Positions 24,941-52,360 of a stretch of DNA of 54,331 bases are shown in pieces; position 1 is the first letter of the stretch; each line of letters starts with the position of its first letter. This DNA is from a virus. Its lineage: Duplodnaviria; Caudoviricetes. The notes under the pieces are model-generated. The model was not told the origin of the DNA and searched no databases. It was given only the letters and a program-made list of their open reading frames with translations. The stretch spans positions 1 through 54,331 of the IMG/VR virus record IMGVR_UViG_3300049137_000055, one strand, 5' to 3'. The translations under genes were made by a program, and so were the position numbers.

Positions 24941-25348
24941 TCAGCGACCGGCGCGGGTCAAGTGCTTAGTGACATATGATAGAAAGGTAAACTTTCCGGA
25001 TGATTTAATTTCGCCGAACGGCGTCCAGGACTGGCGTCCGTCCCGTTCCGCTTGGTCTTCGTCCCTCCAGTGCTGGCCAAGGCGGCACATCAGCGACCAA
25101 ATGCCATGGACCTTCGCCAGACCGCGTTCGTAGCGGACCGCCATGAAGAGGTCGTAAAGGTCCGCGCCACGGTCGCGGCGGCGGTTCTGGAACTTCATTC
25201 GGCAAGGGGAGGTGCAAAAGGCGGCTTCCCGGCGGTCTGTCCCGAAGGACTCGCCGCATTCACGACAGGCGCGGCGGAACAGATAGGCCGGACGGTTCGG
25301 ACGTGGCGCTGGCGGCGCGTCTAAGGTGAATTCTTCTTGGAACAGCAT
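24941..25348 (-). CDS. Zn-finger (CxxC...CxxxC) protein
   Basis: CRECG...FCTSPCR...NRR..RGA.LYD; start follows AAGGCTCGAA motif. Confidence 0.75.
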   Translation of the reverse strand: MLFQEEFTLDAPPAPRPNRPAYLFRRACRECGESFGTDRREAAFCTSPCRMKFQNRRRDRGADLYDLFMAVRYERGLAKVHGIWSLMCRLGQHWRDEDQAERDGRQSWTPFGEIKSSGKFTFLSYVTKHLTRAGR

Positions 25349-25351
25349 GGT

Positions 25352-25361
25352 TTCGAGCCTT
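25352..25361 (-). promoter_or_regulatory. AAGGCTCGAA start-associated motif
   Basis: AAAGGCTCGAAACC-ATG(25348). Confidence 0.8.
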
Positions 25362-25482
25362 TTGCAGAGCGACAAACCGCCGCCCATGGATCGAGAATTA
25401 TTTATGAACGATGGCACTTTCAAGACGAAAGTTCCAAGAATTCGCCGCTATCATCCTTCCTGAGTAGGATTCGGGCCTTAAG

Positions 25483-25512
25483 AAACAAAAAACCCGGCGC
25501 TTGGCCGGGCTT
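25483..25512 (-). terminator. Rho-independent terminator
   Basis: CCCGGC/GCCGGG stem with U tract on minus strand. Confidence 0.75.
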
Positions 25513-25531
25513 CTTAGTCCTTTCAGACAGG

Positions 25532-25903
25532 TTAGACAGACGAAGATTTCGGCGGTTCGGGCTTCTTCGTGCCTTCCGGAGCGGACGAATCGCCGGTAGG
25601 GGCGGGGGTCTGTTCGTCCGCCAGCTCCGTCGAGTGTTCGGCAATCGCCATCTGGTTTCCGTCAGCGCCTTCCGGGAAGATCGGGGCGACCGCCTGGATA
25701 TGGACGGGCGAATCCGGCGAGCGCTGGACCTTCCCGTCTTCCGCCGCGTAGGTATAGCCGCCAAGGGGGGCCGTGTTCTGGCCGATATTGCCAACGACAG
25801 CGGCGTCCGTGCCTTCCAGGGTCCGGGCGGCTTCAGCGGCCTTCGTGGCGTCGGTCGTCCGGGCGGACTCGTTTGTCGCTGTCTTCGTGTCTCGGGTAGC
25901 CAT
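25532..25903 (-). CDS. Hypothetical low-complexity protein
   Basis: RBS GGAG; followed by its own terminator. Confidence 0.65.
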   Translation of the reverse strand: MATRDTKTATNESARTTDATKAAEAARTLEGTDAAVVGNIGQNTAPLGGYTYAAEDGKVQRSPDSPVHIQAVAPIFPEGADGNQMAIAEHSTELADEQTPAPTGDSSAPEGTKKPEPPKSSSV

Positions 25904-25977
25904 TGCTTCAATCTCCAACGTTGGGGTTAGGACCGTCGTCCGTAGTGTTAACGCCTTAACCTTAGCACCGTTCGGGT

Positions 25978-26835
25978 TTAGTCCTTAACCGGAGGAACGT
26001 TGCTGGCGAACCCATGGGCTTCCAGGATGGCGTTGGCGCGGTCCAGGTCCGCTTGCGACGGCTTCCATTCGTCTTCGCGGACCGGCGTCGAGAGCTGGAC
26101 GACCTTCCGGGCTTCGTCCTGGACTTCCGGCCATGTTGCTTCGTGGCGGTCTGGCTCTTGGCTGAAGTGTTCCGTCAGCGGGGCGGTCCGATAGGCAGCG
26201 CGCGCCTTTTCAGCCAGCTTCACCGGGTCGCCTTCCATGGGGCAACCGCGCGCCTTAAGGAAGGCTTCATCTTCCGACCCTTCGAAGGGAACTTTCGTCC
26301 TGGCGATATACTCCGCCGGAGTTTCGCCGGGGCGTGGCAAGTCCGGGTCAATCCCTTCCAGCCGGCGTTCGGCTTCGGCAAGGACCCGCATCCCTTCCCG
26401 CGTCAGCCCGTTCCATCCTTCGCAGCGCCACGCCAGTTTCGCGCCGACTAGGATCGTTCTGGACTGTTTGTCGATGACGTCGCCGTCCTGGACCGGGCGG
26501 ACAAGTTGGGCGGCGACTTCGAACAACTGGCCGTCCAGGGTCACGGTCGAAGCATATTCCGCGCCGGCATCCTGAAGCGCCGCCAACAGGTCTTCGCGGG
26601 CTTGCGCTTCCTTCACCAAGGCGGCGTTATAGGCTTCTTCCGCCAGCTCATAGCGACGCTCCTGGACGACCCGCGCGACGCTCCGGCCAAAGCGGACGAA
26701 GCCGCCGATGACCACGGACGCGGCGAACAGCCCGTCCATGTAGTTCGACCCTTCAAGCACCTGGACGGCTTCGCGAACGTCCGCGCGGGCGGCGTCATAG
26801 ACCGCGCCAAGGTCTGAAAACTTACGCTGTTCCAT
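25978..26835 (-). CDS. Hypothetical protein
   Basis: RBS AAGGA; overlaps upstream stop. Confidence 0.7.
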   Translation of the reverse strand: MEQRKFSDLGAVYDAARADVREAVQVLEGSNYMDGLFAASVVIGGFVRFGRSVARVVQERRYELAEEAYNAALVKEAQAREDLLAALQDAGAEYASTVTLDGQLFEVAAQLVRPVQDGDVIDKQSRTILVGAKLAWRCEGWNGLTREGMRVLAEAERRLEGIDPDLPRPGETPAEYIARTKVPFEGSEDEAFLKARGCPMEGDPVKLAEKARAAYRTAPLTEHFSQEPDRHEATWPEVQDEARKVVQLSTPVREDEWKPSQADLDRANAILEAHGFASNVPPVKD

Positions 26836-27325
26836 TGTCTTTTCCTTCGTCGGCAAATCTCAGGGACAGGGTCACGCCGTTGGCGTCGGCGCGGTAGGAC
26901 ATCGCGCCTTTGCGCGCCTTGTCGATTAGCTCCGACGACATACGCACCTCGCCGCCGAAGTAGTGAATGACAGCGGCAAGGATGGCCGCTTCTTCCCGCT
27001 GGCGTTCATAGAAGTCTTCTTCTTCGGCTTCCTTGGCCTTCTGGAGCTCGCCAAGCGCCACGGCATATTCGCCGACTCGAGCCTTCCAGAATTCGGCGCT
27101 GGCCGGGTCTTCGGGATCGTTGCGGGCGTTGTGATGCGGCGCGGCGTTCTTCGCTTGCTGGATGAAGGCGTCCGTGATGATGGCGTCCATGACCGGGCGA
27201 AGATGCGCCGCCATCTTTCCGGCGTCACAGTCATGGAAGCGGGTCGGATAAAGCTTCCTCATGGCGCGGACGACCTGTTCAGCCGGGTCGGCGACGTCCA
27301 GTTCATTGTCAGGCTGTTGGTCCAT
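26822..27325 (-). CDS. Hypothetical protein
   Basis: Start MDQQ with RBS AAGGA, overlapping RNase H stop. Confidence 0.7.
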   Translation of the reverse strand: MDQQPDNELDVADPAEQVVRAMRKLYPTRFHDCDAGKMAAHLRPVMDAIITDAFIQQAKNAAPHHNARNDPEDPASAEFWKARVGEYAVALGELQKAKEAEEEDFYERQREEAAILAAVIHYFGGEVRMSSELIDKARKGAMSYRADANGVTLSLRFADEGKDNGTA

Positions 27326-27863
27326 TGCTGAAGATTCCTTCGTTGGGGTATCGGGCGCGGTCCAACTCCGCCCGCATTCCAAGGCGGGCCAAGCTGTCGG
27401 CGCGTTCGTTGTGGCGGTTGCCGGAATGGCCGCGAACCCATTTCCATTCCACGCGGCGGAGGTCGCAGGCGCGCGAAAGCTGTTCCCAAAGGTCCCGGTT
27501 CTTGACGTCCTGGCCATCGACAGTCGTCCAGCCGTTGGCGCGCCAGTTGGGAATCCATCGCTCTATTCCGCGCTGGACATATTGGGAGTCGGCGCGCACC
27601 ACGACGCGCGCGCCAACCGGCATCAGATCCACGGCCAACAGCGCGGCGGTCATTTCCATCCGGTTGTTGGTTGTGCGGAGCTGACCGCCGAACAGTTCGA
27701 CCGTGGCGGCTCCGGCGCGGATGACCACGCCAAAGCCGCCGGGTCCGGGGTTAGGGGAACACGCGCCATCACTGAACGCCGTCACGTCCTGGAAGCGCGC
27801 CAGAAGGCGGCGGGCGGCGTCCAGGTCGTCGGCGTGATACGTGAAGACGGTCGTGTCATTCAT
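27309..27863 (-). CDS. rnhA: Ribonuclease HI
   Basis: FSDGACSPNPGPGGFG, TTNNRME, DSQYV..GI..W, VKN.DLW, WVRGHSG...NERAD: D/E/D/D catalytic residues intact. Confidence 0.95.
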   Translation of the reverse strand: MNDTTVFTYHADDLDAARRLLARFQDVTAFSDGACSPNPGPGGFGVVIRAGAATVELFGGQLRTTNNRMEMTAALLAVDLMPVGARVVVRADSQYVQRGIERWIPNWRANGWTTVDGQDVKNRDLWEQLSRACDLRRVEWKWVRGHSGNRHNERADSLARLGMRAELDRARYPNEGIFSNGPTA

Positions 27864-28099
27864 CGCGGCATCTTTTCCCGAAGGCCGCGCGAAATTTCCG
27901 CGACCTTCGCTTCAAAGGTTCGGCGGGCTTCCGCCGACCAATGCTGGTCGACGGTTTCCCGCATTCCCGCTTCCATGTTCTGGAGCATCAGCGCCGCCGT
28001 CAGCGGATCGCCGTCGCCGATAAGGGCGACGGAAACTTCCGCGACGGCGACGACGCCGGCCATGGCGTTGACCAAGTCCATGACGTCGTCGCTGGCCAT
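27860..28099 (-). CDS. Hypothetical protein
   Basis: Coupled to recT (TGATG) and rnhA (ATGA). Confidence 0.65.
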   Translation of the reverse strand: MASDDVMDLVNAMAGVVAVAEVSVALIGDGDPLTAALMLQNMEAGMRETVDQHWSAEARRTFEAKVAEISRGLREKMPR

Positions 28100-29283: not shown

Positions 29284-29285
29284 GA

Positions 29286-30230
29286 CTATGCTTCCTCTGT
29301 TTCGCTGGCGGTTGCTTTGGCCTTCTTCTTCGTGACCCGCAGGACGCGGAACGATGAAGCGGCGACGGTCACTTCCTTTCGGGACTGTTCCTTCCAGGAA
29401 ATGTTGAAGTCTGGATGGATGGCGACGTCCGCGCCTTTCAAGGCGTCAATCAGCTCCGCCTTCAGGACGTCCAGCGCGCCTTCGCAGTTGCGGCGGCGCT
29501 CCGCCCATTCCAGGTATTGTTGCGCCAGTTCTCCGGCGCGGTTGTGCGTGGTCAGGTCAATCTTATCCAGCTTCACGTTGCGCCAGCGGGCTTCGATAAT
29601 GTCCAGGTCCAGGTTGTAGGACGGTTCTGGCCAGTCGTTGGCTTCGAACTTGGTCCAGAAGTCCGCCGCCAGTTCGCGGATGCGCGCTTCGGCTCCGGCG
29701 TGGCGCTCCAGTTCGATGATGACCGGGCGGTCGGCGTTGTCGGACATGCGAACAAGCGCCGCCACGACCGCGAAGTCCGCGTCTGCCAACATGGCGTTGG
29801 TCAGCGCCTGGAGGACATAGCGAAGCGGCGGCTGGTCTTCCGTCCACTGGCTGTCAAAGACGTTGCGCGTGACGGACTTGCATTCGAGAATCCCGCGCTT
29901 CCCGTTCGGCTTAATGACGAAGCCGTCCGGCGTGGAGCCTAGGCGGAGCTCCGGCGCGCGAAGATAGACCTTGGCGCGCGAGGTCTTCCAGTCTGGCCGC
30001 TCTTCCTGGAGCATTTCCACGATAGCGGCTTCGTGCCAGCGCCCGCGCTTCATCGCGTCGGAATCCATCGCGGGCTTGTGGCCGGCCTTGTCGGCATAGA
30101 CCGCGAACGGTCCGGCGTAGGGGTTCGCGCCAGCCAGCGTTCCAATGTCGGTCGCCGTCACGTCCTGGCGGCGCAAGGCCAGCCAGCTTTCGCGGTCTGT
30201 GATTTCGTGCGTTTCAACATTCAACTTCAT
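29286..30230 (-). CDS. YqaJ-like viral recombinase exonuclease
   Basis: WL..RR..VTATD, RGR.HE, STPDG, ILECKS, Y..Q; upstream of recT. Confidence 0.92.
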   Translation of the reverse strand: MKLNVETHEITDRESWLALRRQDVTATDIGTLAGANPYAGPFAVYADKAGHKPAMDSDAMKRGRWHEAAIVEMLQEERPDWKTSRAKVYLRAPELRLGSTPDGFVIKPNGKRGILECKSVTRNVFDSQWTEDQPPLRYVLQALTNAMLADADFAVVAALVRMSDNADRPVIIELERHAGAEARIRELAADFWTKFEANDWPEPSYNLDLDIIEARWRNVKLDKIDLTTHNRAGELAQQYLEWAERRRNCEGALDVLKAELIDALKGADVAIHPDFNISWKEQSRKEVTVAASSFRVLRVTKKKAKATASETEEA

Positions 30231-30239
30231 TCGAGCCTT
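30230..30239 (-). promoter_or_regulatory. AAGGCTCGAA start-associated motif
   Basis: GGAAGGCTCGA-ATG(30230). Confidence 0.8.
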
Positions 30240-36290: not shown

Positions 36291-38402
36291 ATGTCATCAG
36301 GCTCGAAACTGGACCAACACATTGAAACAGTCGCCAAGGCGCTGTTCGGCGACGACCTGAATCGCCACCTGTCGAAGCCGGGGAAGGAACTTCGCTTTGG
36401 GACGCATGGGTCCCTATCCGTCGATTTGCAAAAGGGGACGTTCTTCGACTTCGAGGACGGCGGACCTGACGCGGGCGGCGGCGTCCTGGATTTGCTCCGG
36501 AAATATCGCGGCATGGACACGGCGGCGGCGCTGAAGTTCATGGAAGGCGAACTTGGCCTGGACATTAAGCGGGAAGGGGACGACGGCGAATCCTGGAAGG
36601 ACCGGCCACGCGAGGAACGCGCGCCGCGCCAGTCCAGCCCGCGCCAGTCGAAGCCGCGCGAGCAAGCCAACGGCGTGAAGTTTGAGAAGCAAAAGCCGCG
36701 CGGGAAGCCGGTCGCGTTCTATGATTATCAGGACTTCGAAGGCCGGCTGTTTCTTCAGGTCGTCCGCTATGAAATGCCGGACGGGTCAAAGACCTTCCGC
36801 CAGCGGACTCCGAAGGTTCGCGAGCCGCGCAACGATGCGCCGGGCGACTGGAACTGGACGGCGGAAGGCGTCGAGCTTCTTCCCTATCGCCTGCCGGAGC
36901 TCATGGAAGACCTGGCACAAGACCGGACCGTCTTCCTGATCGAAGGCGAAAAGGCGGTGGACTACCTTCGCGCGCAAGGCATCCCGGCGACATGCAACCC
37001 GATGGGACGCGGCAAAATCAACAAGCTGTCGCCGCGCTTCTTCGAGCTGTTCAAGGACGGCGACGTGGTCGTCATCGGCGACAACGATCCGGACGGCGGC
37101 GGTCAGCAACACGCAACCCAAATGGGCGAACGCCTGGAAGACCACGCGCGCCGGGTCCGGGTCATTCCCGCCTGTCCGGGCGTGAAGGAGAAGGGCGGCG
37201 CTGACGACTGGCTGGCGGACGGACATTTCCCGGATGAATTGTATGAGCTGGCGACCGTCCATGGCGTGGACGTGGAAGAGTTGCCGCCGGTCTCTCTTTT
37301 GGGAGCCATCAGCCCGCTTGAAATCATGAAGAACGTCCGCCGGGTCGAATGGCTGGCGGACGGGATCATTTCGACCGGGTCAACATGCGTCATCTATGGC
37401 GGCTCCGGCTCCGGCAAGTCGCTTCTGGTCATGGACCTGGCCATGGCCATCGCGCGCGGAACGCAATTCCTGGACATCGACGCCAAACAGGCGGGCGTTC
37501 TCTACCAAGCGGGCGAATCCTATGCCAACCAACGGCGGCGCATCGTCGCCTATATGACCCGCCACGGCATTGATAAGGACTTCCCGTTCCGGCTGCTGGA
37601 ACGGCGCGTCAACCTGTTCACCAAGCCGGAGGACGTGGACGCCTTAATCGCAGAGATCCGCGCGCAAGATGAATACTTCCGCCGGGTCTTTAACGGCGTC
37701 GGGGTCGGCGTCGTCATCATCGACACACTGGCGGCGGCGACGGCTGGAGCTGTCGAGAATGCCAGCGAAGACATGACGAAAATCACGGACATTATTGAAC
37801 GGGTCCAGCGCGAAGCGAAGGTCGCCGTCATCGTGGTCCACCATACGAACGCGGTTGGCGAGCGCGAACGCGGTCATGGCGCGCTTCGTGGCGCGGTTGA
37901 CTTCATGGTCCGGGTCGAACACGACAAGGAAACCAACATCCGGACGCTGGAGGTTGACAAGAACAAGGAAGGGGCCATCGGCCTTAAGCGATTCTTCCGC
38001 GCCGAAGGTCAGGAATTCCAGACGCCGGATGGCTTCACGGAAGCGGCGGGCGTCATCATCCAGACGGACGACTATGGCGAACGGCAGAGGAAGGAAGGCC
38101 GGCGTTTGCCGGATAAGGTCGTCCTGGCCAAACGCATTCTGGCGGACACGCTGGCGGACCGTGGCGTGACCGGGAAGGGCGGCGTCCCGATTGGCGTCAA
38201 CGCGGTCACATGGGACGTCTGGCGTGACGTCGCCTTCGGCAAAATGGCCGGGCTGGACGACACCATCCGCGCCGACAAGGACGCTTATCGCAAGGCGCAA
38301 CTGTCCTTTACCAAGGAATTGCAGGACTGGACCCGGACCCTGATGACGCGCGGGGAGGTCGGACGGAGCGACGACGGAAAGTTCGTCTGGCTGGCGCGGT
38401 AG
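36291..38402 (+). CDS. Primase-helicase (Toprim + AAA_25/RepA-type helicase)
   Basis: LRFGTHGSLSVDL, LIEGEKA, DND..G Toprim; GGSGSGKS Walker A; IIDT; VVHH; RGHGAL. Confidence 0.92.
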   Translation: MSSGSKLDQHIETVAKALFGDDLNRHLSKPGKELRFGTHGSLSVDLQKGTFFDFEDGGPDAGGGVLDLLRKYRGMDTAAALKFMEGELGLDIKREGDDGESWKDRPREERAPRQSSPRQSKPREQANGVKFEKQKPRGKPVAFYDYQDFEGRLFLQVVRYEMPDGSKTFRQRTPKVREPRNDAPGDWNWTAEGVELLPYRLPELMEDLAQDRTVFLIEGEKAVDYLRAQGIPATCNPMGRGKINKLSPRFFELFKDGDVVVIGDNDPDGGGQQHATQMGERLEDHARRVRVIPACPGVKEKGGADDWLADGHFPDELYELATVHGVDVEELPPVSLLGAISPLEIMKNVRRVEWLADGIISTGSTCVIYGGSGSGKSLLVMDLAMAIARGTQFLDIDAKQAGVLYQAGESYANQRRRIVAYMTRHGIDKDFPFRLLERRVNLFTKPEDVDALIAEIRAQDEYFRRVFNGVGVGVVIIDTLAAATAGAVENASEDMTKITDIIERVQREAKVAVIVVHHTNAVGERERGHGALRGAVDFMVRVEHDKETNIRTLEVDKNKEGAIGLKRFFRAEGQEFQTPDGFTEAAGVIIQTDDYGERQRKEGRRLPDKVVLAKRILADTLADRGVTGKGGVPIGVNAVTWDVWRDVAFGKMAGLDDTIRADKDAYRKAQLSFTKELQDWTRTLMTRGEVGRSDDGKFVWLAR

Positions 38403-38411
38403 TTCTTTCGA

Positions 38412-38449
38412 GCAACTTTCGACTTGCAAGAGGGTTAATCTTGCAATAT
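38412..38449 (+). promoter_or_regulatory. Promoter/operator with two CTTGCAA copies
   Basis: GCAACTTTCGACTTGCAAG...CTTGCAATAT upstream of 38498 operon. Confidence 0.6.
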
Positions 38450-38481: not shown

Positions 38482-38491
38482 GAGGCTCGAA
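38482..38491 (+). promoter_or_regulatory. Start-associated motif variant GAGGCTCGAA
   Basis: GGAGGCTCGAAACACCC-ATG(38498). Confidence 0.75.
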
Positions 38492-41206: not shown

Positions 41207-42295
41207 GTGCATATTCTGAGACGGATTCACCATGCCATCACGCGCCGCCTGATCCTGCTTTTATTTCTTAAGCGGAGGGTCTACGAAGCGCGGTTCCGCC
41301 GCGCTTTCGGCGAGAGGAAGCCCGTCGAACTGGTCCACGGCCAGCGGCATTTCCCCGGCGGGCGACACGCCATCTTCTTGATTTGGCAACCGGAGCAAAC
41401 CGCTTGGTACGTGCGGAACGCTCTTGACGCATTGGCCAAGGCTCATGTGAACGTCCTCTTGGTCGTCAATCACAATCTGACGGAGGAACGTCGTCGGGAG
41501 CTCGCCGCGCAATGTGCCAAGATCATGATACGCGACAACACTGGCTTTGACATTGGCGGTTTCCAAGACGCCACGGCCTTCCTTTACAAGCACACTGACG
41601 CGGAGCGGGTCCTATACCTGAACGACAGTGTATATTTCTTTCGCGAAGGCTTGGCGGAACTGTTCGAACGCCTGGCCAACTCTAAGGCGGATGTTTGCAG
41701 CGCCTTCGAGAATTGGGAAATCCACTATCATTTTCAATCGTTCTGCTTGTCTATCTCCGGCGATATGTTGCGACACCCGAAAGTCCTGAAGTTCTGGAAC
41801 GATTACCTTCCAGTTAATTCGCGGCGTTGGGCCATCGACCAAGGCGAGGTCGGTTTTTCGCGCGCCATGCTGCCAGCAGCCGCCAGCATCGAAGTTCTTT
41901 ATACACCTCCCCGGCTGAAGTCCGAACTTCTGTCCCTTCCCCTTGACGACCTACGCATGATGGACCGCTATTTGCCGGCCACGCTCCGGTTAGGTCCGGA
42001 GAGGATTAAAAAGCTATCCAAGCCGGAACTTGTTCGCGAATTGTGCGAAAGAGTAGCCATGCGATCACAGGTCCACAGCGGCGGGTTTTTGTTCCGGCGC
42101 TTTTCCGGCAACCCGCTGATGAAAAAAGATTTGGTCTACCGCGAACAGTTCAGCCTTTATGACGTCGAAGCCATGCTTGAAGAGTTGGGAAGCGAAGGTC
42201 ATGCAGACGAGATCCTGAGCGACTTCCGGCGCAAGGGGCGCGGCATTCTCATGACGGGACTGAAACGGCGTCTGTTCGATGAGGGAATTCTGTAG
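41207..42295 (+). CDS. Rhamnan-synthesis protein F (RgpF)-like polysaccharide enzyme
   Basis: RDNTGFDIGGF, LNDSVYF, HFQSFCL, FW, GEVGFSR, PLMKKD motifs. Confidence 0.75.
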   Translation: MHILRRIHHAITRRLILLLFLKRRVYEARFRRAFGERKPVELVHGQRHFPGGRHAIFLIWQPEQTAWYVRNALDALAKAHVNVLLVVNHNLTEERRRELAAQCAKIMIRDNTGFDIGGFQDATAFLYKHTDAERVLYLNDSVYFFREGLAELFERLANSKADVCSAFENWEIHYHFQSFCLSISGDMLRHPKVLKFWNDYLPVNSRRWAIDQGEVGFSRAMLPAAASIEVLYTPPRLKSELLSLPLDDLRMMDRYLPATLRLGPERIKKLSKPELVRELCERVAMRSQVHSGGFLFRRFSGNPLMKKDLVYREQFSLYDVEAMLEELGSEGHADEILSDFRRKGRGILMTGLKRRLFDEGIL

Positions 42296-42950
42296 CGCCT
42301 GGACGGCTGGCGCTGACCGGGACTCCCATGCGAAGGGCGGCGCAAGCCGCCTTTTTCTTATCTGGTAGACTCTTTCTATCGGTCGTGTTCAGCCTCTTGA
42401 ACCCGCACGGCTTCAGCCATGCCAGCCACTCCGGCGAAACGATCCGGACCACGTTGGGAAGGTTCTTCAGGTCGCCCGGTATCCGCCGCCGCGTGACCGT
42501 CACGAAGCCAGCCGCAACCGCCGCCCGAAGGCCATTCTGAACCGTCGTCCTGGACACGCCAGCCCGCGCCGCTATCGCGTCCAGGACCAAGCCACAGAAC
42601 CCGCGCGCCCGGACTTCGTCGGCAACGATCCGGAGCGCGGCCAATTCCCCTTCCGTGAACCGCGCGGCCATAGCAGGCGGCATCACGCCGGATCGCGCGA
42701 GCTGGCGGCGTCTGGCCACCGCGACAGGTCTGGACGGCGGTCGCTGGAGCCGGCGCGGCGGACCGACCGGGCGTCCCCTTCCCTGCCCTTCCCTGATGGC
42801 CACGCGGCGCGCCTGGATGGCTTCCGCCAGCGATTGGACGTGGTCGTCCGACATGGCGTCCATGGCGGCATAGATCGCGCGCGACAGGTCGTCCAGGCGC
42901 GCGCCCGTCCACGCGCCCGCAATGGCGCGCGTCATCGTCTCATAGATCAT
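42249..42950 (-). CDS. Putative plasmid-type replication initiator (winged HTH)
   Basis: IAARAGVSRTTVQNGLR.....GFVTV.RR......NL.N wHTH; divergent from parA; structured leader. Confidence 0.55.
   Translation of the reverse strand: MIYETMTRAIAGAWTGARLDDLSRAIYAAMDAMSDDHVQSLAEAIQARRVAIREGQGRGRPVGPPRRLQRPPSRPVAVARRRQLARSGVMPPAMAARFTEGELAALRIVADEVRARGFCGLVLDAIAARAGVSRTTVQNGLRAAVAAGFVTVTRRRIPGDLKNLPNVVRIVSPEWLAWLKPCGFKRLNTTDRKSLPDKKKAACAALRMGVPVSASRPGATEFPHRTDAVSVPS
42336..42356 (+). terminator. Rho-independent terminator after rgpF-like gene
   Basis: GGCGGC-GCAA-GCCGCC-TTTTT. Confidence 0.85.
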
Positions 42951-43039
42951 CGTTCAGCCTTCCCTTCCGGGTTGGCCGCGCGACGGCAAAAGCCGCCCGT
43001 TCGCGGGACTTGCGTCCAGCGTCGATTTATGGAAATGTC

Positions 43040-43457: not shown

Positions 43458-44156
43458 ATGGCGGTTCTTGTGTTAGGGACACCGAAAGGCGGGGCGGGGA
43501 AAAGCACGTCAACGCTTTTGATTGGAACGACCTTGGCGCGTCGTGGCGCGAAGGTGACGGTCATCGACGCCGATAAAAACAAAGACCTTATGGACTGGTA
43601 CGGCAACGGCGGGAAACCTATCAAGGTTATTCCGGCTGGCACGGAAGACGGTTTCGTGTCGAAGCTGGATAAGGAAGCGGCCAGCGCGGACTTGGTCATC
43701 ATCGACCTTGCTGGCGCGGCCATCGGCGGCGCAATGTCCAACATCATGTCCAGGTCCATCTTGCGCGCTGACCTTGTGTTGGTCCCCATGCAACCAAGCC
43801 GCCTGGACGCCAAACACGCGGCGCGAATGGTGGACCTGATAAAGCAAGAGGCGGAAGTTCTCCGGACGTCCATTCCGTTCCGGATGTTTCTGACACAGAC
43901 AAGTGAAGCGGTTCCGACGCGCGCAACAAAGCGCATCGTTGCGCAGATGGAAAAGAAGGGGTTCCCGTTCCTTCGGACGCAAGTCGGGAAGCGTGAACCA
44001 TTTCGAAGTCTTTTTGAGAGAGATTGCACCCTGGACCAACTGACCGTGAAAGAGTTCCCAACGCTTCCGCAAGCCGTCGAGAATGCGGAGAAGTTCACGG
44101 ACGAAGTCGTCGCGGTTCTGAAGTCCATCGTTGCGAAAGGGAAGGCGGCAGCATGA
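43458..44156 (+). CDS. parA: ParA partition ATPase (type Ib)
   Basis: KGGAGKST deviant Walker A, IDADKN, VIIDLAG, ADLVLVPMQPS.LD. Confidence 0.93.
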   Translation: MAVLVLGTPKGGAGKSTSTLLIGTTLARRGAKVTVIDADKNKDLMDWYGNGGKPIKVIPAGTEDGFVSKLDKEAASADLVIIDLAGAAIGGAMSNIMSRSILRADLVLVPMQPSRLDAKHAARMVDLIKQEAEVLRTSIPFRMFLTQTSEAVPTRATKRIVAQMEKKGFPFLRTQVGKREPFRSLFERDCTLDQLTVKEFPTLPQAVENAEKFTDEVVAVLKSIVAKGKAAA

Positions 44157-44588: not shown

Positions 44589-44936
44589 ATGGCGCAAGTC
44601 GTGACGAAGGTTCGGGGGGACGATTGGTCGTTCCCTTTTACATGGCGCGTAAAAGGCGGCGCGGGCGTTGACCTGACCGGCTACACGGTCGGCGCGGATT
44701 TCTACCGGGCTTATAACGCGACGCCGGTCGAAATGGTCGAAGGCAGCGGCGTGACCGTCCTTGACCGCGAGGCCGGCAAGTTTGAAGTCACGGTCGCGAG
44801 CGAGGTCACGGCTTCCGTCACGCCGCAACGTTCACAGACGCCGGAGATTGCGACCCGGCTTCATGTTTACGTTGTCACGCCGGGCGGCAACCGCGAAACC
44901 CTTGGCGTCATCCCGGTCCGCGTGGTGGCACCATGA
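44589..44936 (+). CDS. Second fibre adaptor (BppU-like)
   Basis: RGDDW....., VDLTGYT, GVTVLD..AGKF; paralogous to 19060-19407. Confidence 0.7.
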   Translation: MAQVVTKVRGDDWSFPFTWRVKGGAGVDLTGYTVGADFYRAYNATPVEMVEGSGVTVLDREAGKFEVTVASEVTASVTPQRSQTPEIATRLHVYVVTPGGNRETLGVIPVRVVAP

Positions 44937-45976
44937 ACGAAGTTATCATCACGACGCTGGCGACCGAACTTGTGTTAAGCGAGGCGGGCGCTTCGTTTGA
45001 ACTGGTCATAGAAACACCCATCATTGAAACGCTCGAAATCATCGAACAAGGACCGCAAGGACCGCCGGGGACAGGCGGAACCGGCGGCGAAGGCAGCGGC
45101 GCGGACGGTCTGTCGGCGTATCAGGTCGCTACGAAAAACGGCTTCGTCGGGACGGAAACGCAATGGCTGGCCAGCCTGAAGGGCGCGAAAGGCGACAAAG
45201 GCGACACTGGCGCGACCGGACTGAAAGGCGACACTGGACAGCAAGGTCCCCAAGGCTTGCCGGGTCCGAAGGGAGATCCCGGCGCGACCGGCGAGCGCGG
45301 CTTACAGGGCGAACAAGGCATCCAAGGCGAAGCGGGACCGCAAGGCTTGCCGGGCGTCAAAGGCGATCCAGGCGAAGCGGGTCCGCAAGGCTTGAAGGGC
45401 GATCCTGGCGAACCCGGCGCAACCGGGGCCAAAGGCGACCAAGGCTTGCCGGGACCAAAAGGCGACACTGGCGCAACCGGCGAAGTCGGACCCGCCGGAG
45501 CTAAGGGCGACCCTGGCGCGACAGGTCCGAAGGGCGACACCGGGGACGTTGGACCGCAGGGATTGAAAGGCGACACCGGAGCGACCGGACCAAAGGGCGA
45601 CAAGGGCGACAAGGGCGACCAAGGCGAACCCGGCGCGCCTGGCACAACGCGATATGACATGAGCCTATATGTCGGCGGCAAGCCCGGCGCGAGCGAACGG
45701 CTTCTGTTGCACGTCGCCGTCACGGCGTTTTCCCTGCCGGCGAACCTGACCGGAAGCCGCGGATTCGCGGGCGTCGCACCAACGGCTTCCGTCGTGCTGT
45801 CGCTCCGGAAAAACGGGACGCAATTCGGGACGGCGACCTTCGCGGCGAGTCAGACGGTCGCCACATGGGCGGGAACAGCGACAGCCTTCGCCATCGGCGA
45901 CCGGCTGGAAATCGTCGCTCCAGCACAGGACGCGACCTTCGCGGATCTTGCGCTAACACTTGTCGCGACAAGGTAG
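44933..45976 (+). CDS. Collagen-like fibre protein
   Basis: About 52 uninterrupted Gly-X-Y triplets; SAYQVA..NGFVGTE.QWLASL; beta-rich C-terminal domain. Confidence 0.88.
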   Translation: MNEVIITTLATELVLSEAGASFELVIETPIIETLEIIEQGPQGPPGTGGTGGEGSGADGLSAYQVATKNGFVGTETQWLASLKGAKGDKGDTGATGLKGDTGQQGPQGLPGPKGDPGATGERGLQGEQGIQGEAGPQGLPGVKGDPGEAGPQGLKGDPGEPGATGAKGDQGLPGPKGDTGATGEVGPAGAKGDPGATGPKGDTGDVGPQGLKGDTGATGPKGDKGDKGDQGEPGAPGTTRYDMSLYVGGKPGASERLLLHVAVTAFSLPANLTGSRGFAGVAPTASVVLSLRKNGTQFGTATFAASQTVATWAGTATAFAIGDRLEIVAPAQDATFADLALTLVATR

Positions 45977-46553: not shown

Positions 46554-46562
46554 TAGCGCAAC

Positions 46563-47565: not shown

Positions 47566-47569
47566 AGGT

Positions 47570-47579
47570 TTCGAGCCTT
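47570..47579 (-). promoter_or_regulatory. AAGGCTCGAA start-associated motif
   Basis: TGAAAGGCTCGAAACCT-ATG(47565). Confidence 0.8.
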
Positions 47580-47660
47580 TCACATTCCGGGTCGTCCCGG
47601 CTTCAACTCCAGACGTCCGGAGCTGAAGGCGAGAGGCGGACCGAAGTCCGCCGCCGGTCG

Positions 47661-47990: not shown

Positions 47991-48000
47991 TTCGAGCCTT
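47991..48000 (-). promoter_or_regulatory. AAGGCTCGAA start-associated motif
   Basis: CTGAAAGGCTCGAA-ATG(47990). Confidence 0.8.
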
Positions 48001-48041
48001 TCAGGTTAGGGGAGGGGAGCCGGCGAACCGGGTCCAGGTCG

Positions 48042-48290: not shown

Positions 48291-48293
48291 CGT

Positions 48294-48303
48294 TTCGAGC
48301 CTT
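48294..48303 (-). promoter_or_regulatory. AAGGCTCGAA start-associated motif
   Basis: CTGAAAGGCTCGAAACG-ATG(48290). Confidence 0.8.
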
Positions 48304-48494
48304 TCAGTCTGGCGGGTCAATCCCGCTTGCAAGTTGAAAGTATCATGGCCAGCGGGATCGTCAAGCGGGTTTTTCCTTCGCCCGCGTCCGCGCCCGCGCG
48401 AGGGACAAATTCCGGGCTGTTTCGAGCCGTTCAGGTCGTTGACAGTTTGTCACCAAGGGGACAAATTGTTTTTCCCCATGGGGACAAATTCAAT

Positions 48495-48504
48495 AAGGCT
48501 CGAA
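48495..48504 (+). promoter_or_regulatory. AAGGCTCGAA start-associated motif
   Basis: AAGGCTCGAAACCATC-ATG(48511). Confidence 0.8.
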
Positions 48505-48510
48505 ACCATC

Positions 48511-48819
48511 ATGCAAGCGAAGAAGATCGGAAGACCGTTGTCTGACACGACGCGGGAAGTTCTGGAGCTGTTGCGCCAGTATTGGAGAGAACGCGCCGAC
48601 CCGGCGTCAATGGGTCCGGAAGGTTTCGTCAAGAGTTCTGAATTTTATGACTTCCTTCATCGTCACTATAACTGTCAGCGGTCGCGGAAAGCGCTGTTCC
48701 TCGAAAAACCGCATCTGAACAGCGCCATGAAGACGCTTCGCCGCCGGGACGTCATCCTGGAAACAACTGGCGAAGACGGCGAAACCCGGCTGGTCCGGCC
48801 ATGTGGCGTCCTGGACTGA
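48511..48819 (+). CDS. Putative winged-helix DNA-binding protein embedded in repeat cluster
   Basis: 102 aa; LS.....VLELL...AMKTL..RDVI......LV pattern; TTGACA at 48439. Confidence 0.6.
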   Translation: MQAKKIGRPLSDTTREVLELLRQYWRERADPASMGPEGFVKSSEFYDFLHRHYNCQRSRKALFLEKPHLNSAMKTLRRRDVILETTGEDGETRLVRPCGVLD

Positions 48820-49190
48820 CTTTGTCCTTTGCGCGCGAGGGACAAAGTCAAATGTCCTTCGCGCGAGGGACAAATTCCAAGCCATTGAAATCCCGACACA
48901 ATCAAGGAACGTTTGTCCCTCATGCGCGCGAGGTTTAAACATCGCCCGCGCGCGGCCACGCACACGCCCGCGTTTACTCCACGCGTAGTAGTAGGGTTTT
49001 TCCCCTTCGGGAAAAAACAACCTACTACTTCGCTACTGTGTCGGTTGGAGAGTTCTCTAGGTCACTTCGCTGGATGGTTCATCAGCCGTTCGTCTATCGC
49101 GCTTGGGGCGCGACGAACGACCGCTGAACCGACGTTGGCGCTTGACGATTGCGATTCGAAAGCGCATCTTGCGACGTGAAAGGAAGACCA

Positions 49191-49433
49191 ATGACCTTCA
49201 ATCTTGCTCCAAAGACCCTTCCGCGTCGGCGACGTCCCGTTGGCGGCTTCTTCATGGACCTTGTCCGGTCGGCTATGGGCGAAGTAACGACCATCTTTGT
49301 CCCCTACTTCCCGGACGGAGCCAAAGACCTGTCGGCGCGGACCCTGGCGCTGTCCAGCGTCAGCCAGCGGACGGTGGTCGAAAGCGAGCGGCAGAAGATT
49401 CGCCGCTTCCATGACGCCAAGGGCCGGTCATGA
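49191..49433 (+). CDS. Hypothetical protein
   Basis: RBS AAAGGA. Confidence 0.65.
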   Translation: MTFNLAPKTLPRRRRPVGGFFMDLVRSAMGEVTTIFVPYFPDGAKDLSARTLALSSVSQRTVVESERQKIRRFHDAKGRS

Positions 49434-49624
49434 GGGCCATCGTCATCGTCTGTCTGGTCGCCGTCATGGCAATCCTGGCGGCTGTCCTTTGGGACGTCGC
49501 CGGATGGCCAGCCTTGGCGTTCGTTCCGTCGCTAATCGCCGTCATCATGGTCGGATCAGCCCTAATCGTCGGAGCTAGAGCCGACGCTAGGGCTGAAAAT
49601 CCGGCCACTGACGGCGATTCATAG
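49430..49624 (+). CDS. Small two-TM membrane protein
   Basis: Two hydrophobic helices; ATGA-coupled. Confidence 0.65.
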   Translation: MRAIVIVCLVAVMAILAAVLWDVAGWPALAFVPSLIAVIMVGSALIVGARADARAENPATDGDS

Positions 49625-49681
49625 GCTTCCGGGTATCCAACTAGCCGCCGACCCTTAAACGGGCGTCAGCGGTCAAAATTC

Positions 49682-49691
49682 AAGGCTCGAA
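49682..49691 (+). promoter_or_regulatory. AAGGCTCGAA start-associated motif
   Basis: AAGGCTCGAAAC-TTG(49694). Confidence 0.75.
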
Positions 49692-49693
49692 AC

Positions 49694-49813
49694 TTGAACA
49701 CCAACATTCCGCCGAAACCGTCGGCGCTTTGGACGCTCCTGGCATGGTCCGGCGTTGTCCTTCTGGTCGCCGCCTGGACCATCATTCTTCTGGAGTTCCC
49801 GCCGTGGAAATGA
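49694..49813 (+). CDS. 39-aa single-TM protein (absent from ORF track)
   Basis: TTG start after motif; LWTLLAWSGVVLLVAAWTIILL; ATGA overlap with next gene. Confidence 0.6.
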   Translation: MNTNIPPKPSALWTLLAWSGVVLLVAAWTIILLEFPPWK

Positions 49814-50436
49814 AACTGGACCTGGATCACTGGAAGGCCATCGCGGACGACCTGTTCGCATCCGCCGACCAAGTCCCGTTCGCGCTGTCGCAAGCCATGA
49901 ACACGGCGGCGTTTGAAACGCGAACCTACCTGATCGAAATGACCTGGCCAGCTCACGTCGAGGTCAGAAACCCTAACTTCATCCGCCAGCTAAACGTTGA
50001 TCGCGCCAACAAAGGCGGACTGACCGTCGTCATTCATGACCGTCGCACCAAAGGCCGCGCGCACCTGTCCCTTCACGACACTGGCGGAACTAAAGGCGCG
50101 GAAGGTCGTCTGGCCATCCCGCCTTCCGGGTCGGAAGCCGACGCCGCAAGAGGCGCGAAAGGCGTCCCGCGCAACCTTCGGCCTAAAGCCATCATCGCCG
50201 CGACACCGTCCCGCGCGCTTCGCATCACTCCGCAGGGAATTTTCATCGGTCGCGGCGGGCGGCTGCATATGGCGTACAACTTCCAGCCGAACGCGCAACA
50301 GCCGGCGGACGTCCCGTTCGGCGAAGACTTCGTCCAGGTCATGGGCGAAGCCATGGAACGCCTGTTCCCGGCGGCTATCGGAAACGCCATGCGGTCCAGA
50401 CGGTCGAAGCGTTCAAACGGAAGCTGGAGAGGATGA
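49810..50436 (+). CDS. Lambda gpZ-like tail completion/neck protein, displaced upstream of cos
   Basis: QVPFA.S.A.N..AF, L..H..GG.K, F..A...A pattern. Confidence 0.6.
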   Translation: MKLDLDHWKAIADDLFASADQVPFALSQAMNTAAFETRTYLIEMTWPAHVEVRNPNFIRQLNVDRANKGGLTVVIHDRRTKGRAHLSLHDTGGTKGAEGRLAIPPSGSEADAARGAKGVPRNLRPKAIIAATPSRALRITPQGIFIGRGGRLHMAYNFQPNAQQPADVPFGEDFVQVMGEAMERLFPAAIGNAMRSRRSKRSNGSWRG

Positions 50437-50699
50437 CCATGAGGCTACAGACCGCTATCCAAACCGCGCTGGTCACAGCCGGGAAGACCGAAGCCCGCAT
50501 CCAGAAAGACCGCCTTCGTGAAATCGGTCACGAACTGGAGCGACAGAAGAAAACCCTTCAGGCCATCGGCGAAGTCGCCAACCTTCTGAAGACCATGAAG
50601 GGACGCGGAACGGTCAACGTCCCGCTGTCCTACACCATCGAACGCCTGGAAGAAGCGATGAACGATCCGGCGTCAGTTCTCGAAAGGAAGGACCAATGA
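50433..50699 (+). CDS. Hypothetical protein
   Basis: Coupled; ends ERKDQ. Confidence 0.65.
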   Translation: MTMRLQTAIQTALVTAGKTEARIQKDRLREIGHELERQKKTLQAIGEVANLLKTMKGRGTVNVPLSYTIERLEEAMNDPASVLERKDQ

Positions 50700-50941
50700 C
50701 CGTCATCTGGTCGGAAGTCGTCGTCCCGTCCGACGTCCTGGAAGACGATGACGAACCGGCGAAACTCCATCAGCAATGTTGGATTGACGGCGCGCTTTGG
50801 GGCGAAGTCATCCGCTTTTATGACGACGCGCCAACATACGCTTACGCGGGCGGCGAACGCATAGGAGCAATCGAAAGCGATGACGCCGCACGGAAGGCTG
50901 TCGTTAAGTCCCATCCCTATTACGAAAGGAAGGACCAATGA
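50681..50941 (+). repeat. 19-bp direct repeat CGAAAGGAAGGACCAATGA at gene junctions (50681-50699, 50923-50941)
   Basis: Exact match; includes RBS, stop and start. Confidence 0.9.
50696..50941 (+). CDS. Hypothetical protein
   Basis: Coupled; ends ERKDQ. Confidence 0.65.
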   Translation: MTVIWSEVVVPSDVLEDDDEPAKLHQQCWIDGALWGEVIRFYDDAPTYAYAGGERIGAIESDDAARKAVVKSHPYYERKDQ

Positions 50942-51162
50942 TGAACGTCATTGACCAACGCATGGTTAAGACGCCGACAGGCGAAGACTACCTGGAAGCG
51001 TCTATCATCGAAATGCCTGGACGTCGGCGTCCTGTCCTGAAGATCGAGCCGGTTCACAACGTTCCGCTTCGACCCATCCACTTCGACGCTGGCGCTTGCC
51101 GCGAGCTGTCGAAGGCGCTGGCTGAACTGGCTGACGTGATGGACGAAAGGGGAGGGCGATGA
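50938..51162 (+). CDS. Hypothetical protein
   Basis: Coupled; C-terminal RELSKAL.ELAD. Confidence 0.65.
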   Translation: MMNVIDQRMVKTPTGEDYLEASIIEMPGRRRPVLKIEPVHNVPLRPIHFDAGACRELSKALAELADVMDERGGR

Positions 51163-51326
51163 CGGTTCGTCCGTTGGATCGCGCTGACGTCCTGGAGGAA
51201 ATCAGACGAATTCGGTTGCTTCTTCCAATGCGCCTTCCGCGTGAAGTTCGGACAGACCTGAAGCGCGACCTTCGGGCTTGCCAATGGGCGCTTAAGGCTA
51301 TCCGGAAGGAACGTCATGTCCGTTGA
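51159..51326 (+). CDS. Hypothetical 55-aa basic protein (absent from ORF track)
   Basis: RBS GGAGG, ATGA overlap; MTVRPLDRADVLEEIRRIRLLL... Confidence 0.55.
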   Translation: MTVRPLDRADVLEEIRRIRLLLPMRLPREVRTDLKRDLRACQWALKAIRKERHVR

Positions 51327-51756
51327 CCGTCTGAAGATCGCGGCGGAGATCCTGGACCAACTGCTGTCGCTTGGATGGGAACCAACAGACGAACAGGTCA
51401 GACGAATGACCAAGGTCGTCCTGGCCGGCGGACCATCAGGCGGATCGTCCGGACCATCGGCGAAGGCACAAGGGCGGAAGGACAGGCCAGTGAACGTTCG
51501 CCGCACCGCCGAAGTAAGTCCAGAGTTGGCAGTCTCGCATGTGCGAAGTACGTATAGCCCAACGCGCAACGACGTTGCACCTTGCAGGAATGCAAATGAA
51601 GGCGCGTTACATCGTGACGAAACGGCGGGTCCTTTGACTGCCGCCGGGGCTATGCGGGGAACGCGCGAGTCCGGTCCTTCGGAAGCTGCCAGCCCGTCCC
51701 TAGACCCGCTCCTGAATTTGCAATCTTGCAAGTTCGCAAAGATCGGCGCTTTATAA
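51316..51756 (+). CDS. Hypothetical protein; 3' half runs through cos and may be non-functional
   Basis: RBS AAGGA; plausible N-terminal 45 aa, atypical codons afterwards. Confidence 0.4.
   Translation: MSVDRLKIAAEILDQLLSLGWEPTDEQVRRMTKVVLAGGPSGGSSGPSAKAQGRKDRPVNVRRTAEVSPELAVSHVRSTYSPTRNDVAPCRNANEGALHRDETAGPLTAAGAMRGTRESGPSEAASPSLDPLLNLQSCKFAKIGAL
51626..51670 (+). other. Lambda-type cos site (cosQ + cosN); predicted 12-nt cohesive end GGGAACGCGCGA (51657-51668)
   Basis: CGGGTCCTTT matches lambda cosQ context; GGG-starting 12-mer begins 23 nt after GGGTCCT, the lambda spacing; GpA-type terminase. Confidence 0.7.
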
Positions 51757-51768
51757 CTTCGTTATAAG
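51718..51768 (+). promoter_or_regulatory. TTGCAA repeats and AT-rich palindrome (promoter/operator or cosB)
   Basis: TTGCAATCTTGCAAG; TTATAAC-TTC-GTTATAA. Confidence 0.5.
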
Positions 51769-51823
51769 GTTCCGCGAATGACCCGCCGTCCGACCGGGTC
51801 CAGGTTGTGTCGGACAGAACTGA

Positions 51824-51833
51824 AAGGCTCGAA
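51824..51833 (+). promoter_or_regulatory. AAGGCTCGAA start-associated motif
   Basis: CTGAAAGGCTCGAAAC-ATG(51836). Confidence 0.8.
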
Positions 51834-51835
51834 AC

Positions 51836-52360
51836 ATGGAACGTCTAAGGATTGAAACGAAAGCGGCTGACGTCGAAGTCGGCAAGAGTTGGAATGACCC
51901 GTCCGGCGTTGGAATCGGAATGGGCTTAAGCGGGGTTGAGGTCATGGCCGACCTAACGCCAGACCAAGCGCGCCAGCTTGCCGCCCGTCTGGTCGAAGAG
52001 GCGGACCGGATCGCGCCGAATGTGCGCGGGCTGCTGAATGCCGAAGCCCGCGCGGAATACGTTTACAAGGTGGACGAAGCCGGGCGGATTCTGTCCGTCG
52101 AGAAAGCGAAGGACCCGTCCATGGCGCAACCGCCGGGCGAAGCCTTCCAGGCGCGGGTCCCTGGCAGCGTCGCCGACGCGGATGGCAATATCTGGCTGTC
52201 GCACGATACGAAGGCAAGCAAGGGACGCCTTCGCGTCAGCGGTAAACAGGCGGCGATTGCGATAGACCCGGCGAATGGTTGGGGCTGGCGGATCGTTGGT
52301 CGGACCGGGTTTATTCGGGACGGACAGTTCGCGCCGTCTGTTGAGATTGAAAGGGACTGA
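51836..52360 (+). CDS. Hypothetical protein, first gene right of cos
   Basis: LTPDQARQLAARL...AD motif. Confidence 0.7.
   Translation: MERLRIETKAADVEVGKSWNDPSGVGIGMGLSGVEVMADLTPDQARQLAARLVEEADRIAPNVRGLLNAEARAEYVYKVDEAGRILSVEKAKDPSMAQPPGEAFQARVPGSVADADGNIWLSHDTKASKGRLRVSGKQAAIAIDPANGWGWRIVGRTGFIRDGQFAPSVEIERD

Follow-up and report, generated by a model that had tools for sequence, protein, structure and literature searches.

A start-associated sequence in the virus genome IMGVR_UViG_3300049137_000055 and a hairpin loop antisense to it, a candidate regulator of translation

In some phages of actinobacteria, a short sequence is repeated immediately before the starts of selected genes. In the available text of Pope et al. 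(2011; PMC3203893), the start-associated sequence (SAS) of Cluster K mycobacteriophages, GGGATAGGAGCCC, is described as a 13-bp asymmetric sequence that is present in 11–19 copies, belongs only to non-structural genes and is located 3–7 bp before the mostly ATG starts of genes with upstream gaps of more than 50 bp; it consists of AGGAG and flanks unable to pair with 16S rRNA, approximately half of the copies have conserved imperfect inverted repeats upstream (ESAS), and a copy on the opposite strand is described as not start-associated. The accessible part of PMC7302621 gives a similar motif, GGGAAAGGACCCC, for Cluster EF Microbacterium phages. A survey of 188 Cluster K genomes (PMC12699233, November 2025), in whose accessible text the words "antisense" and "non-coding" do not occur, states that the role of SAS still needs experimental verification. 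The SAS literature found in our search, which was confined to phages of actinobacteria, concerned Clusters K and O and Microbacterium phages. We here describe a start-associated sequence, AAGGCTCGAAAc, in a phage genome of the IMG/VR database (record IMGVR_UViG_3300049137_000055, positions 1 to 54,331; this whole stretch of 54,331 nucleotides is called the window), together with a terminator-type hairpin whose loop is antisense to it.

Other known systems serve for comparison. Staphylococcus aureus RNAIII carries C-rich loops, including that of its terminator hairpin, that are complementary to Shine-Dalgarno (SD) sequences, and phages also possess antisense RNAs such as sar of P22 and c4 of P1. 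RegA of phage T4 is a translational repressor of many early mRNAs, acting at loosely conserved, AU-rich sites that overlap the ribosome-binding site. At the DNA level, the stoperators of Cluster A mycobacteriophages are, according to the accessible parts of PMC9262239 and PMC3203893, 13-bp asymmetric sequences that occur in many copies in intergenic regions and are oriented along transcription.

The motif of the window is a genuine and highly non-random start-associated sequence. Its exact 10-mer, AAGGCTCGAA, was observed nine times on both strands against 0.09 expected, and none of 100 shuffled sequences reached this number; when one mismatch was allowed, 20 copies were observed against 4.52 expected. 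At lengths of 8, 10 and 12 nt alike, an order-3 Markov model ranked this motif first among the over-represented words of the genome (AGGCTCGAAA, 9 against 0.039; AAGGCTCGAAAC, 6 against 0.005). Eight of the nine exact copies, as well as the GAGG variant GAGGCTCGAA, are in sense orientation and have -1 to 6 nt between their end and the start codon, which is ATG in eight cases and TTG in one. The eight exact copies and the variant at 38482(+) listed in an initial annotation of this DNA all stand at their places (Table 1). With 83 starts from our own curation of open reading frames (ORFs) and eight allowed offsets, random placement would be start-adjacent with a probability of 0.006, giving P = 1.7e-17 for eight adjacent copies among nine. 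The initial annotation had seen no copy at gene starts in the first 24 kb, and this is borne out even by the 8-mer GGCTCGAA: all 17 copies are within 24247-53457 and none is in the structural part, 1-24246. The information content is 1.7–2.4 bits across AAGGCTCGAAA, 0.8 bits at the following c and near zero in the flanks on both sides, and the conserved block is thus sharply bounded at 11–12 positions, which argues for selection on the site, not for segmental duplication. The ORFs downstream of the nine copies are coding-like, with G+C contents at third codon positions (GC3) of 0.65–0.87, above those at second positions (GC2), and two of them have family matches.

The view of the initial annotation that this motif replaces a normal SD sequence has to be given up, because the motif contains the SD core of the genome itself, AAGG, at normal spacing. 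The usual SD sequences of the genome are (G)AAAGG, AAGGA or AAGGG; AAGG is found within -18..-5 at 48 of 82 starts (13 of 28 structural and 35 of 54 non-structural) and mostly begins at -14 to -11, and inside the motif it begins at -9 to -16, the same position. Five alphaproteobacterial 16S genes, used as proxies that may not be the host's, end in ...CACCTCCTTTCT, and GAAAGG is complementary to this CCUUUC tail. These five 16S rRNAs contain no complement of 7 or 8 nt to CTCGAAAC, GCTCGAAA or GGCTCGAA, and the best duplex between motif and 16S rRNA uses only the SD half. The motif is thus an ordinary SD core followed by a frozen spacer, CTCGAAAc, and it is the spacer alone that is special. Two other interpretations were discarded. 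The TGA preceding five copies is hardly the stop of an upstream ORF, because three of the five frames have no start codon and the others comprise only 8 and 20 codons (at 47579 and at the copy without a start, 48430); and a leaderless promoter does not fit a motif-to-ATG distance that varies from -1 to 6 nt, and would lose the SD sequence.

The genes carrying the motif are distinguished by their position. The upstream gap is at least 51 nt at all nine SAS starts (51–220 nt) but at only 22 of 73 other starts (Fisher test, 6.9e-5), and when the comparison is restricted to the non-structural part, the counts are 9 of 9 and 18 of 45 (8.8e-4), all on the basis of the above curation of 83 ORFs; the other genes have a median gap of 3 nt, ATGA overlaps being frequent among them. 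Because the nine SAS genes, which include the exonuclease heading the exonuclease-RecT block and three small leftward genes, begin after an intergenic gap, they must recruit ribosomes on their own. The initial annotation took the targets mostly for the first genes of transcription units, which they may be; promoters and terminators near these genes are consensus guesses only. G+C-rich hairpins without a common sequence occur upstream of most SAS genes, and they were not stronger than those of other gap-preceded genes (median -15.9 versus -13.2 kcal/mol, p = 0.089); as they are not specific to SAS genes, we did not accept them as an equivalent of ESAS, and no conserved ESAS-like sequence element was found upstream of the SAS sites.

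The ninth exact copy, at 24247-24256(-), is absent from the initial list and has no adjacent start, and it is the most informative of all copies. A hairpin at 24232-24273, which follows the late operon (+) and separates it from the convergent recombination operon (-), holds this copy in its loop. The + strand loop is the exact antisense of AAGGCUCGAA, all 10 of the 10 motif bases being complementary. The hairpin has z-scores of -3.7 and -3.6 against shuffled sequences, and since only seven hairpins with a perfect stem of at least 9 bp and a loop of 9–16 nt exist in the whole genome, an exact motif copy centred in such a loop is unlikely to be a chance event. The other terminator-like hairpins listed have loops of 3–8 nt, a range set by the scan design. 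When the loop was paired with the 83 initiation regions, the nine SAS sites gave the nine best duplexes (-15.8 to -18.4 kcal/mol, against a median of -7.7); at the exonuclease, all 13 loop bases, including those opposite the AUG, can pair (-18.4 kcal/mol), and the degenerate variant AAGGCTGAAC before the rep-like gene ranks 11 of 83 (-14.2 kcal/mol). The T-run belongs to the + strand, and the most natural interpretation of the hairpin is therefore the end of a + strand RNA displaying the antisense sequence.

Between the late operon and the antisense-loop hairpin stands another terminator-like hairpin, the first one past the last late gene, and weak promoter-like boxes, TTGTAA-N17-TTTACT, which were read by eye and are suggestive only, lie between both hairpins at 24131-24159; with its own terminator for the late operon and these boxes, a separate RNA of approximately 110 nt is conceivable. 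Rfam gave nothing at the gathering score in the window, and its best match, ncS54 at 24193-24275(+), was not accepted because its score is 26.5 bits against a gathering score of 43 and reflects a generic two-hairpin-plus-terminator likeness. We also set aside TGAAAGGC, a sense half-motif that the first late terminator carries in its loop, because that loop folds down to a GAAA tetraloop and TGAAAGGC, with 11 copies, is a common word. The ORF 24160-24342(-) across the hairpin has a good SD sequence, yet it is probably not coding because its GC3 is 0.52 and its GC2 0.67.

Table 1. Copies and variants of the start-associated sequence (SAS) in the window and the sites related to them
Feature	Position	Strand	Sequence and arrangement	Gene or context	Upstream gap (nt)
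SAS copy 1	25352..25361	-	AAGGCTCGAA + acc + ATG 25348	gene 25348..24941, 135 aa, phrog_20494	183
SAS copy 2	30230..30239	-	last A doubles as the A of ATG 30230	gene 30230..29286, RecE/YqaJ-like exonuclease, then RecT	64
SAS copy 3	38482..38491	+	variant GAGGCTCGAA + acaccc + ATG 38498	46-aa membrane-like ORF after primase-helicase	95
SAS copy 4	47570..47579	-	tgAAAGGCTCGAAacct + ATG 47565	92-aa ORF	95
SAS copy 5	47991..48000	-	abuts ATG 47990 directly	109-aa ORF	51
SAS copy 6	48294..48303	-	+ acg + ATG 48290	82 aa, first leftward gene of divergent control region	220
SAS copy 7	48495..48504	+	+ accatc + ATG 48511	102 aa, first rightward gene of divergent control region	
SAS copy 8	49682..49691	+	+ ac + TTG 49694	39-aa hydrophobic ORF, ATGA overlap with gene 49810	
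SAS copy 9	51824..51833	+	+ ac + ATG 51836	174-aa ORF	79
Ninth exact copy	24247-24256	-	no start; probability of being unpaired 0.92 in the - strand fold	hairpin loop	
Degenerate copy	48421..48430	-	ACGGCTCGAA; no start after it; spoiled SD	between two divergent -35-like boxes (boxes read by eye)	
Complement of SAS copy 3	38406..38413	+	TTTCGAGC; complementary to GCTCGAAA of SAS copy 3	4 nt past the primase-helicase stop	
Internal copy	36298..36309	+	cAGGCTCGAAAC	within codons 3-6 of primase-helicase (ATG 36291)	
Degenerate variant	42952..42961	-	AAGGCTGAAC + g + ATG 42950	rep-like gene, phrog_15967	
Variant	before 52594	+	AAGGGCTGAAACC		
One-mismatch copy	26744..26753	-	AAGGGTCGAA + ctac + in-frame ATG 26739	inside gene 26835..25978	
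Antisense-loop hairpin	24232..24273	+	stem 24232-24243/24257-24268, 12 bp, 11 G-C; 13-nt loop 24244-24256, UUGUUCGAGCCUU; T-run 24268-24273 (T6)		
First terminator-like hairpin after last late gene	24083..24116	+	8-bp GC stem, GAAA tetraloop, then UCUUUU; hairpin part 24083-24109	last late gene stops at 24036-24038	

A comparable arrangement was found in mycobacteriophages. Anaya (subcluster K1) has 16 SAS matches on the + strand and one on the - strand; the latter reads GCCUCCUAUCCC on the transcribed + strand and falls in a 10-nt loop, closed by a GCGCG/CGCGC stem atop a longer one. This hairpin lies within the 385 bp that separate gp97 from gp96, a gene with a terminator of its own. The same hairpin is present at the equivalent place in Adephagia, Angelica and CrimD (all K1). 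In Kratio (K5), UGCCUCCUAUCCC makes up a 13-nt loop at 813-825, towards the opposite end of the genome, on a perfect stem of 15 bp. These K1 and K5 anti-SAS hairpins are strong and G-C-rich and have loops of 10–13 nt, their stem sequences differ, and ten consecutive loop bases including the SD part can pair with SAS, as in the present phage. Upstream of the Anaya hairpin, at approximately 59687-59839, gp96 is followed by an intrinsic terminator and then by another strong hairpin, of 16 bp, with a -10-like hexamer, TAGACT, between them (read by eye), and in view of these features a separate small RNA is conceivable there too. Rfam gave only sub-threshold, chance-level matches near the Anaya hairpin, none above 18 bits. 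Three candidates in other phages were rejected: the reverse-strand SAS of ZoeJ (31724) and of Aminay (36071) are followed on their own strand by an ATG at 2 nt and 0 nt, respectively, and look like ordinary SAS of leftward genes, and a 2-mismatch match in AnnaSerena is unconvincing and not in a loop.

The initial annotation had called the motif reminiscent of the mycobacteriophage SAS, and six of the seven descriptive properties that could be tested are found here, ESAS being the one that is absent. As in Cluster K, this is a short asymmetric repeat of roughly 10–19 copies, restricted to non-structural genes, in sense orientation a few nucleotides before a mostly ATG start, on genes after gaps of more than 50 bp; it combines an SD core with conserved flanks that do not pair with 16S rRNA (here the proxies), and one odd copy has no start. 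It differs from the SAS of Clusters K and EF in that its sequence is unrelated, with AAGG instead of AGGAG as the SD core, that its likely host is an alphaproteobacterium, not an actinobacterium, that genes of both strands carry it, and that its odd copy belongs to a hairpin of the terminator type where the late operon ends; unlike in Cluster K, no conserved ESAS-like inverted repeat stands upstream. The hairpin in turn resembles RNAs of the RNAIII type, because its loop is complementary to the SD sequences of several mRNAs on a stable stem (12 bp, loop of 13 nt), a terminator hairpin would serve as the seed and a block of the 30S subunit is predicted; it differs from them in pairing with the SD core plus a private spacer of a dedicated phage gene set, and in sharing neither sequence nor Rfam membership with known RNAs. 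The regulation proposed below is similar to that by T4 RegA in that a site shared with ribosome binding would allow joint repression of many early mRNAs, whereas the RegA sites are loosely conserved and AU-rich and are served by a known protein; Pfam scans of about 50 non-structural products, 30 of them also scanned with PHROGs, revealed nothing RegA-like.

The initial annotation proposed a post-transcriptional regulon, and we agree that a reading at the RNA level, linked to translation, is the most economical one; we consider it probable that the motif acts as an RNA-level operator. The fixed spacer would not help pairing with 16S rRNA, and it would label nine ribosome-binding sites with the same address, to be read by a trans-acting regulator. 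Our preferred candidate for this regulator is the hairpin RNA of the phage itself, encoded at 24232-24273(+): as it accumulates, it would pair with the SD core and spacer of the nine mRNAs, and possibly also with codons 3-6 of the primase-helicase mRNA, would block binding of the 30S subunit and would thereby shut down the early set together. We infer transcription of the hairpin, pairing of its loop with SAS and repression of translation, and we propose such an antisense-controlled regulon tentatively, as a quite possible reading of the sequence. The hairpin is the most likely partner, because it is the only candidate that the sequence supplies and because the arrangement recurs in K1 and K5 phages. 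More speculative, and to be held with some doubt, is the extension that SAS in general are addresses for a private antisense RNA whose loop mimics the anti-SD sequence plus the SAS flank, and that such systems arose independently here and in the K1/K5 mycobacteriophages. If true, this would be the first mechanism for a motif unexplained since 2011; phages would have an economical means of silencing a selected group of genes by acting on their translation, and its design would be portable to synthetic control of translation. The present results place the SAS phenomenon outside the actinobacteriophages, with an unrelated sequence, and supply a concrete candidate partner, a hairpin loop antisense to the motif, with the same arrangement in five well-studied mycobacteriophages whose host is a laboratory strain.

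Several points weigh against this antisense reading. An anti-SAS hairpin is absent in TM4, ZoeJ, Pixie, Unicorn, Aminay and AnnaSerena, that is, in six of the eleven SAS phages examined, and not even the 9-mer core occurs on the + strand of TM4, Pixie, Unicorn or Aminay; the five phages having it come from two of the seven clusters or subclusters examined, and it is not a general companion of SAS. The hairpin is a palindrome at the DNA level, and read-through from the convergent - strand operon would show the sense motif, which suits a protein or decoy model equally. Ten base pairs inside a 13-nt loop are sterically strained, and perhaps only 6–8 may form. The copy at 48421-48430, between divergent promoter-like boxes, may not be transcribed, and it suits a relic or a DNA site better. 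Because the SAS genes starting at 48511, 49694 and 51836 share the strand of the late genes and lie upstream of them, the early/late split is an assumption. No close relative was found in which the motif and the hairpin could be compared, and the only sequencing run listed as containing the phage DNA is a DNA run, labelled soil metagenome, which may be its source; no RNA run was listed.

Among the alternatives, a protein in place of the antisense RNA is somewhat unlikely, and it shares the positional evidence of the antisense reading. A phage or host RNA-binding protein would recognise AAGGCUCGAAA on single-stranded mRNA and repress or activate the nine genes, the loop copy on the - strand being a high-affinity site or decoy; indeed the motif is exposed in loops of its own strand at 24256(-), where it is almost always unpaired in the predicted fold, and at 49682(+), where a local hairpin, UUCAAG/CUUGAA, puts GCUCGAAA in the loop, and the six SAS phages without an anti-SAS copy need another factor. 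Against it stand the T-run, which marks the + strand antisense RNA as the more natural product of the hairpin, and the finding of no recognisable RNA-binding protein among the about 50 non-structural products searched against Pfam, 30 of them also against PHROGs, a negative that is weak evidence because most of these products are ORFans. Less likely still is that no trans-acting factor exists and that the motif is an unstructured ribosome-binding cassette for genes without translational coupling, spread by recombination, with the help of the phage RecE/RecT, as genes were acquired. All nine sites come after gaps, whereas most other genes overlap or abut their neighbours; a second ribosome-binding cassette, CGAAAGGAAGGACCAATGA, has been reused exactly at 50681 and 50923; the copy without a start at 48421 resembles a decaying duplicate, and the variants AAGGCTGAAC and AAGGGCTGAAACC, which the initial annotation had correctly placed before the rep-like gene (42950, -) and ORF 52594(+), grade into ordinary SD sequences. 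Duplication of a cassette accords poorly with the sharp end of identity at 11–12 nt and the dissimilar flanks, many other unstructured spacers would serve equally, and the accessibility of the motif at the SAS sites is not high (mean probability of being unpaired, 0.17–0.69); such a cassette also leaves unexplained why an exact copy should sit at the centre of a loop on a 12-bp stem and why K1 and K5 phages have the same arrangement.

Action at the DNA level, as an asymmetric binding site through which a phage repressor or another DNA-binding protein would block early transcription, is improbable. Stoperators are likewise short, asymmetric, intergenic and oriented with transcription, as far as described in the accessible text of PMC9262239 and PMC3203893; three copies (48294, 48421 and 48495) lie within a divergent control region of 210 bp, one of them between promoter-like boxes, and the genes for ParA-like and rep-like proteins point to a temperate, plasmid-like lifestyle. 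Stoperators work at the DNA level through a repressor, independently of starts and SD sequences, whereas the present motif is tied to both: it keeps a fixed distance of -1 to 6 nt from the start codon and has an SD sequence inside, neither of which a DNA site needs. It also has no typical inverted or dyad arrangement, and a separate repeat, GGGACAAAT(T), is a better operator candidate in the control region. Least credible of all is an extended pairing with the ribosome, in which a further stretch of host rRNA would bind the spacer and so enhance translation: the complementarity of GAAAGG to the CCUUUC tail of the five alphaproteobacterial 16S genes speaks for it, but the spacer, searched against 16S rRNA only, has no complement there, with the best duplex confined to the SD half.

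Some of the related sites in Table 1 need comment. The copy at 48421 is identical to that at 47991 at 17 of 18 positions over ACCTGAA(A/C)GGCTCGAAA, and it looks like a relic or a DNA-level site. SAS copy 3 is predicted to pair in cis with 38406-38413 (probability of being unpaired, 0.27), and this pairing might sequester its ribosome-binding site and couple translation of that gene to the upstream ribosome. In the primase-helicase gene, GGCTCGAAAC is indeed found in codons 3-6, at 36300-36309, as had been noticed initially; it has no obvious role in ribosome recruitment, because the gene has its own AAGG SD sequence, and it could be a tenth target of the antisense loop. The one-mismatch copy AAGGGTCGAA with ATG 26739 may mark an alternative or the true start of gene 26835..25978. 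The 39-aa ORF that the motif had revealed was located at 49694-49813, ending in an ATGA overlap with the next gene, and with a GC3 of 0.75 and a TTG start, it is likely a real small membrane protein.

The IMG/VR record is a complete virus genome of 54,331 bp with direct terminal repeats and a G+C content of 61%. The first 24 kb (+) carry terminase, portal, capsid, tail and lysis genes, and a recombination block at 24.4-32.5 kb (-) encodes the RecE/YqaJ-like exonuclease, RecT and RNase H. The region of 33-46.5 kb (+) includes genes for a methyltransferase, a RuvC-like resolvase, the primase-helicase, a ParA-like ATPase and a collagen-repeat protein, with the rep-like gene on the - strand; the parts at 47-48.3 kb (-) and 48.5-54.2 kb (+) diverge from the control region, which is rich in GGGACAAAT repeats. 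No tRNA was found in the window. The closest capsid relatives, with 44–53% identity, are prophage-like regions in Alphaproteobacteria, and the host is thus likely an alphaproteobacterium. No close relative was found in a phage database searched by DNA, among viral contigs searched with the primase-helicase, TerL, major capsid protein, exonuclease and rep-like protein, among metagenome contigs searched with the primase-helicase, or among genome contigs searched with the rep-like protein, the best protein matches in these searches being 56% (major capsid protein) and 59% (rep). The exact 10-mer is absent from five distant relatives (G001–G005), and a sixth (G006) has a single 1-mismatch match, at control level; no other SAS-like word was found in these six genomes. 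A scan of viral contigs with the motif only gave, among the matches listed, single chance occurrences.

Further observations concern neighbouring genes and other repeats. The rep-like winged-helix protein (phrog_15967; 42249-42950, -) diverges from a ParA/VirC1-like ATPase (43458-44156, +), and no integrase family matched any of the about 50 non-structural products scanned; a plasmid-type prophage lifestyle is possible. An RgpF-like (rhamnan synthesis) protein at 41207-42295(+) and a collagen-triple-helix repeat protein at 44933-45976(+) are encoded among the non-structural genes. The operator-like repeat (C)GCGCGAGGGACAAATTCC / GGGGACAAATT occurs in at least six direct and inverted copies, at 48395-48413, 48441-48491, 48832-48878 and 48992-49019; these copies surround the divergent control region and also follow the first rightward gene, and they probably form the repressor/Cro binding set. 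The cassette CGAAAGGAAGGACCAATGA is identical over 19 nt at 50681-50699 and 50923-50941, at ATGA-coupled junctions, and a similar sequence is located at 49176-49193. The palindrome GTTTAAAC (5 sites; 10 strand-counts against 0.8 expected) and CGTTTAAACG (6 against 0.12) are also over-represented. In two of the distant capsid relatives, the top words belong to arrays that are not start-associated: in G001, a 27-bp tandem array of at least 17 units at 1760-2246, and in G003, an iteron-like array with five copies of AAAGGCACTGAC within 110 bp, at 44697-44806.

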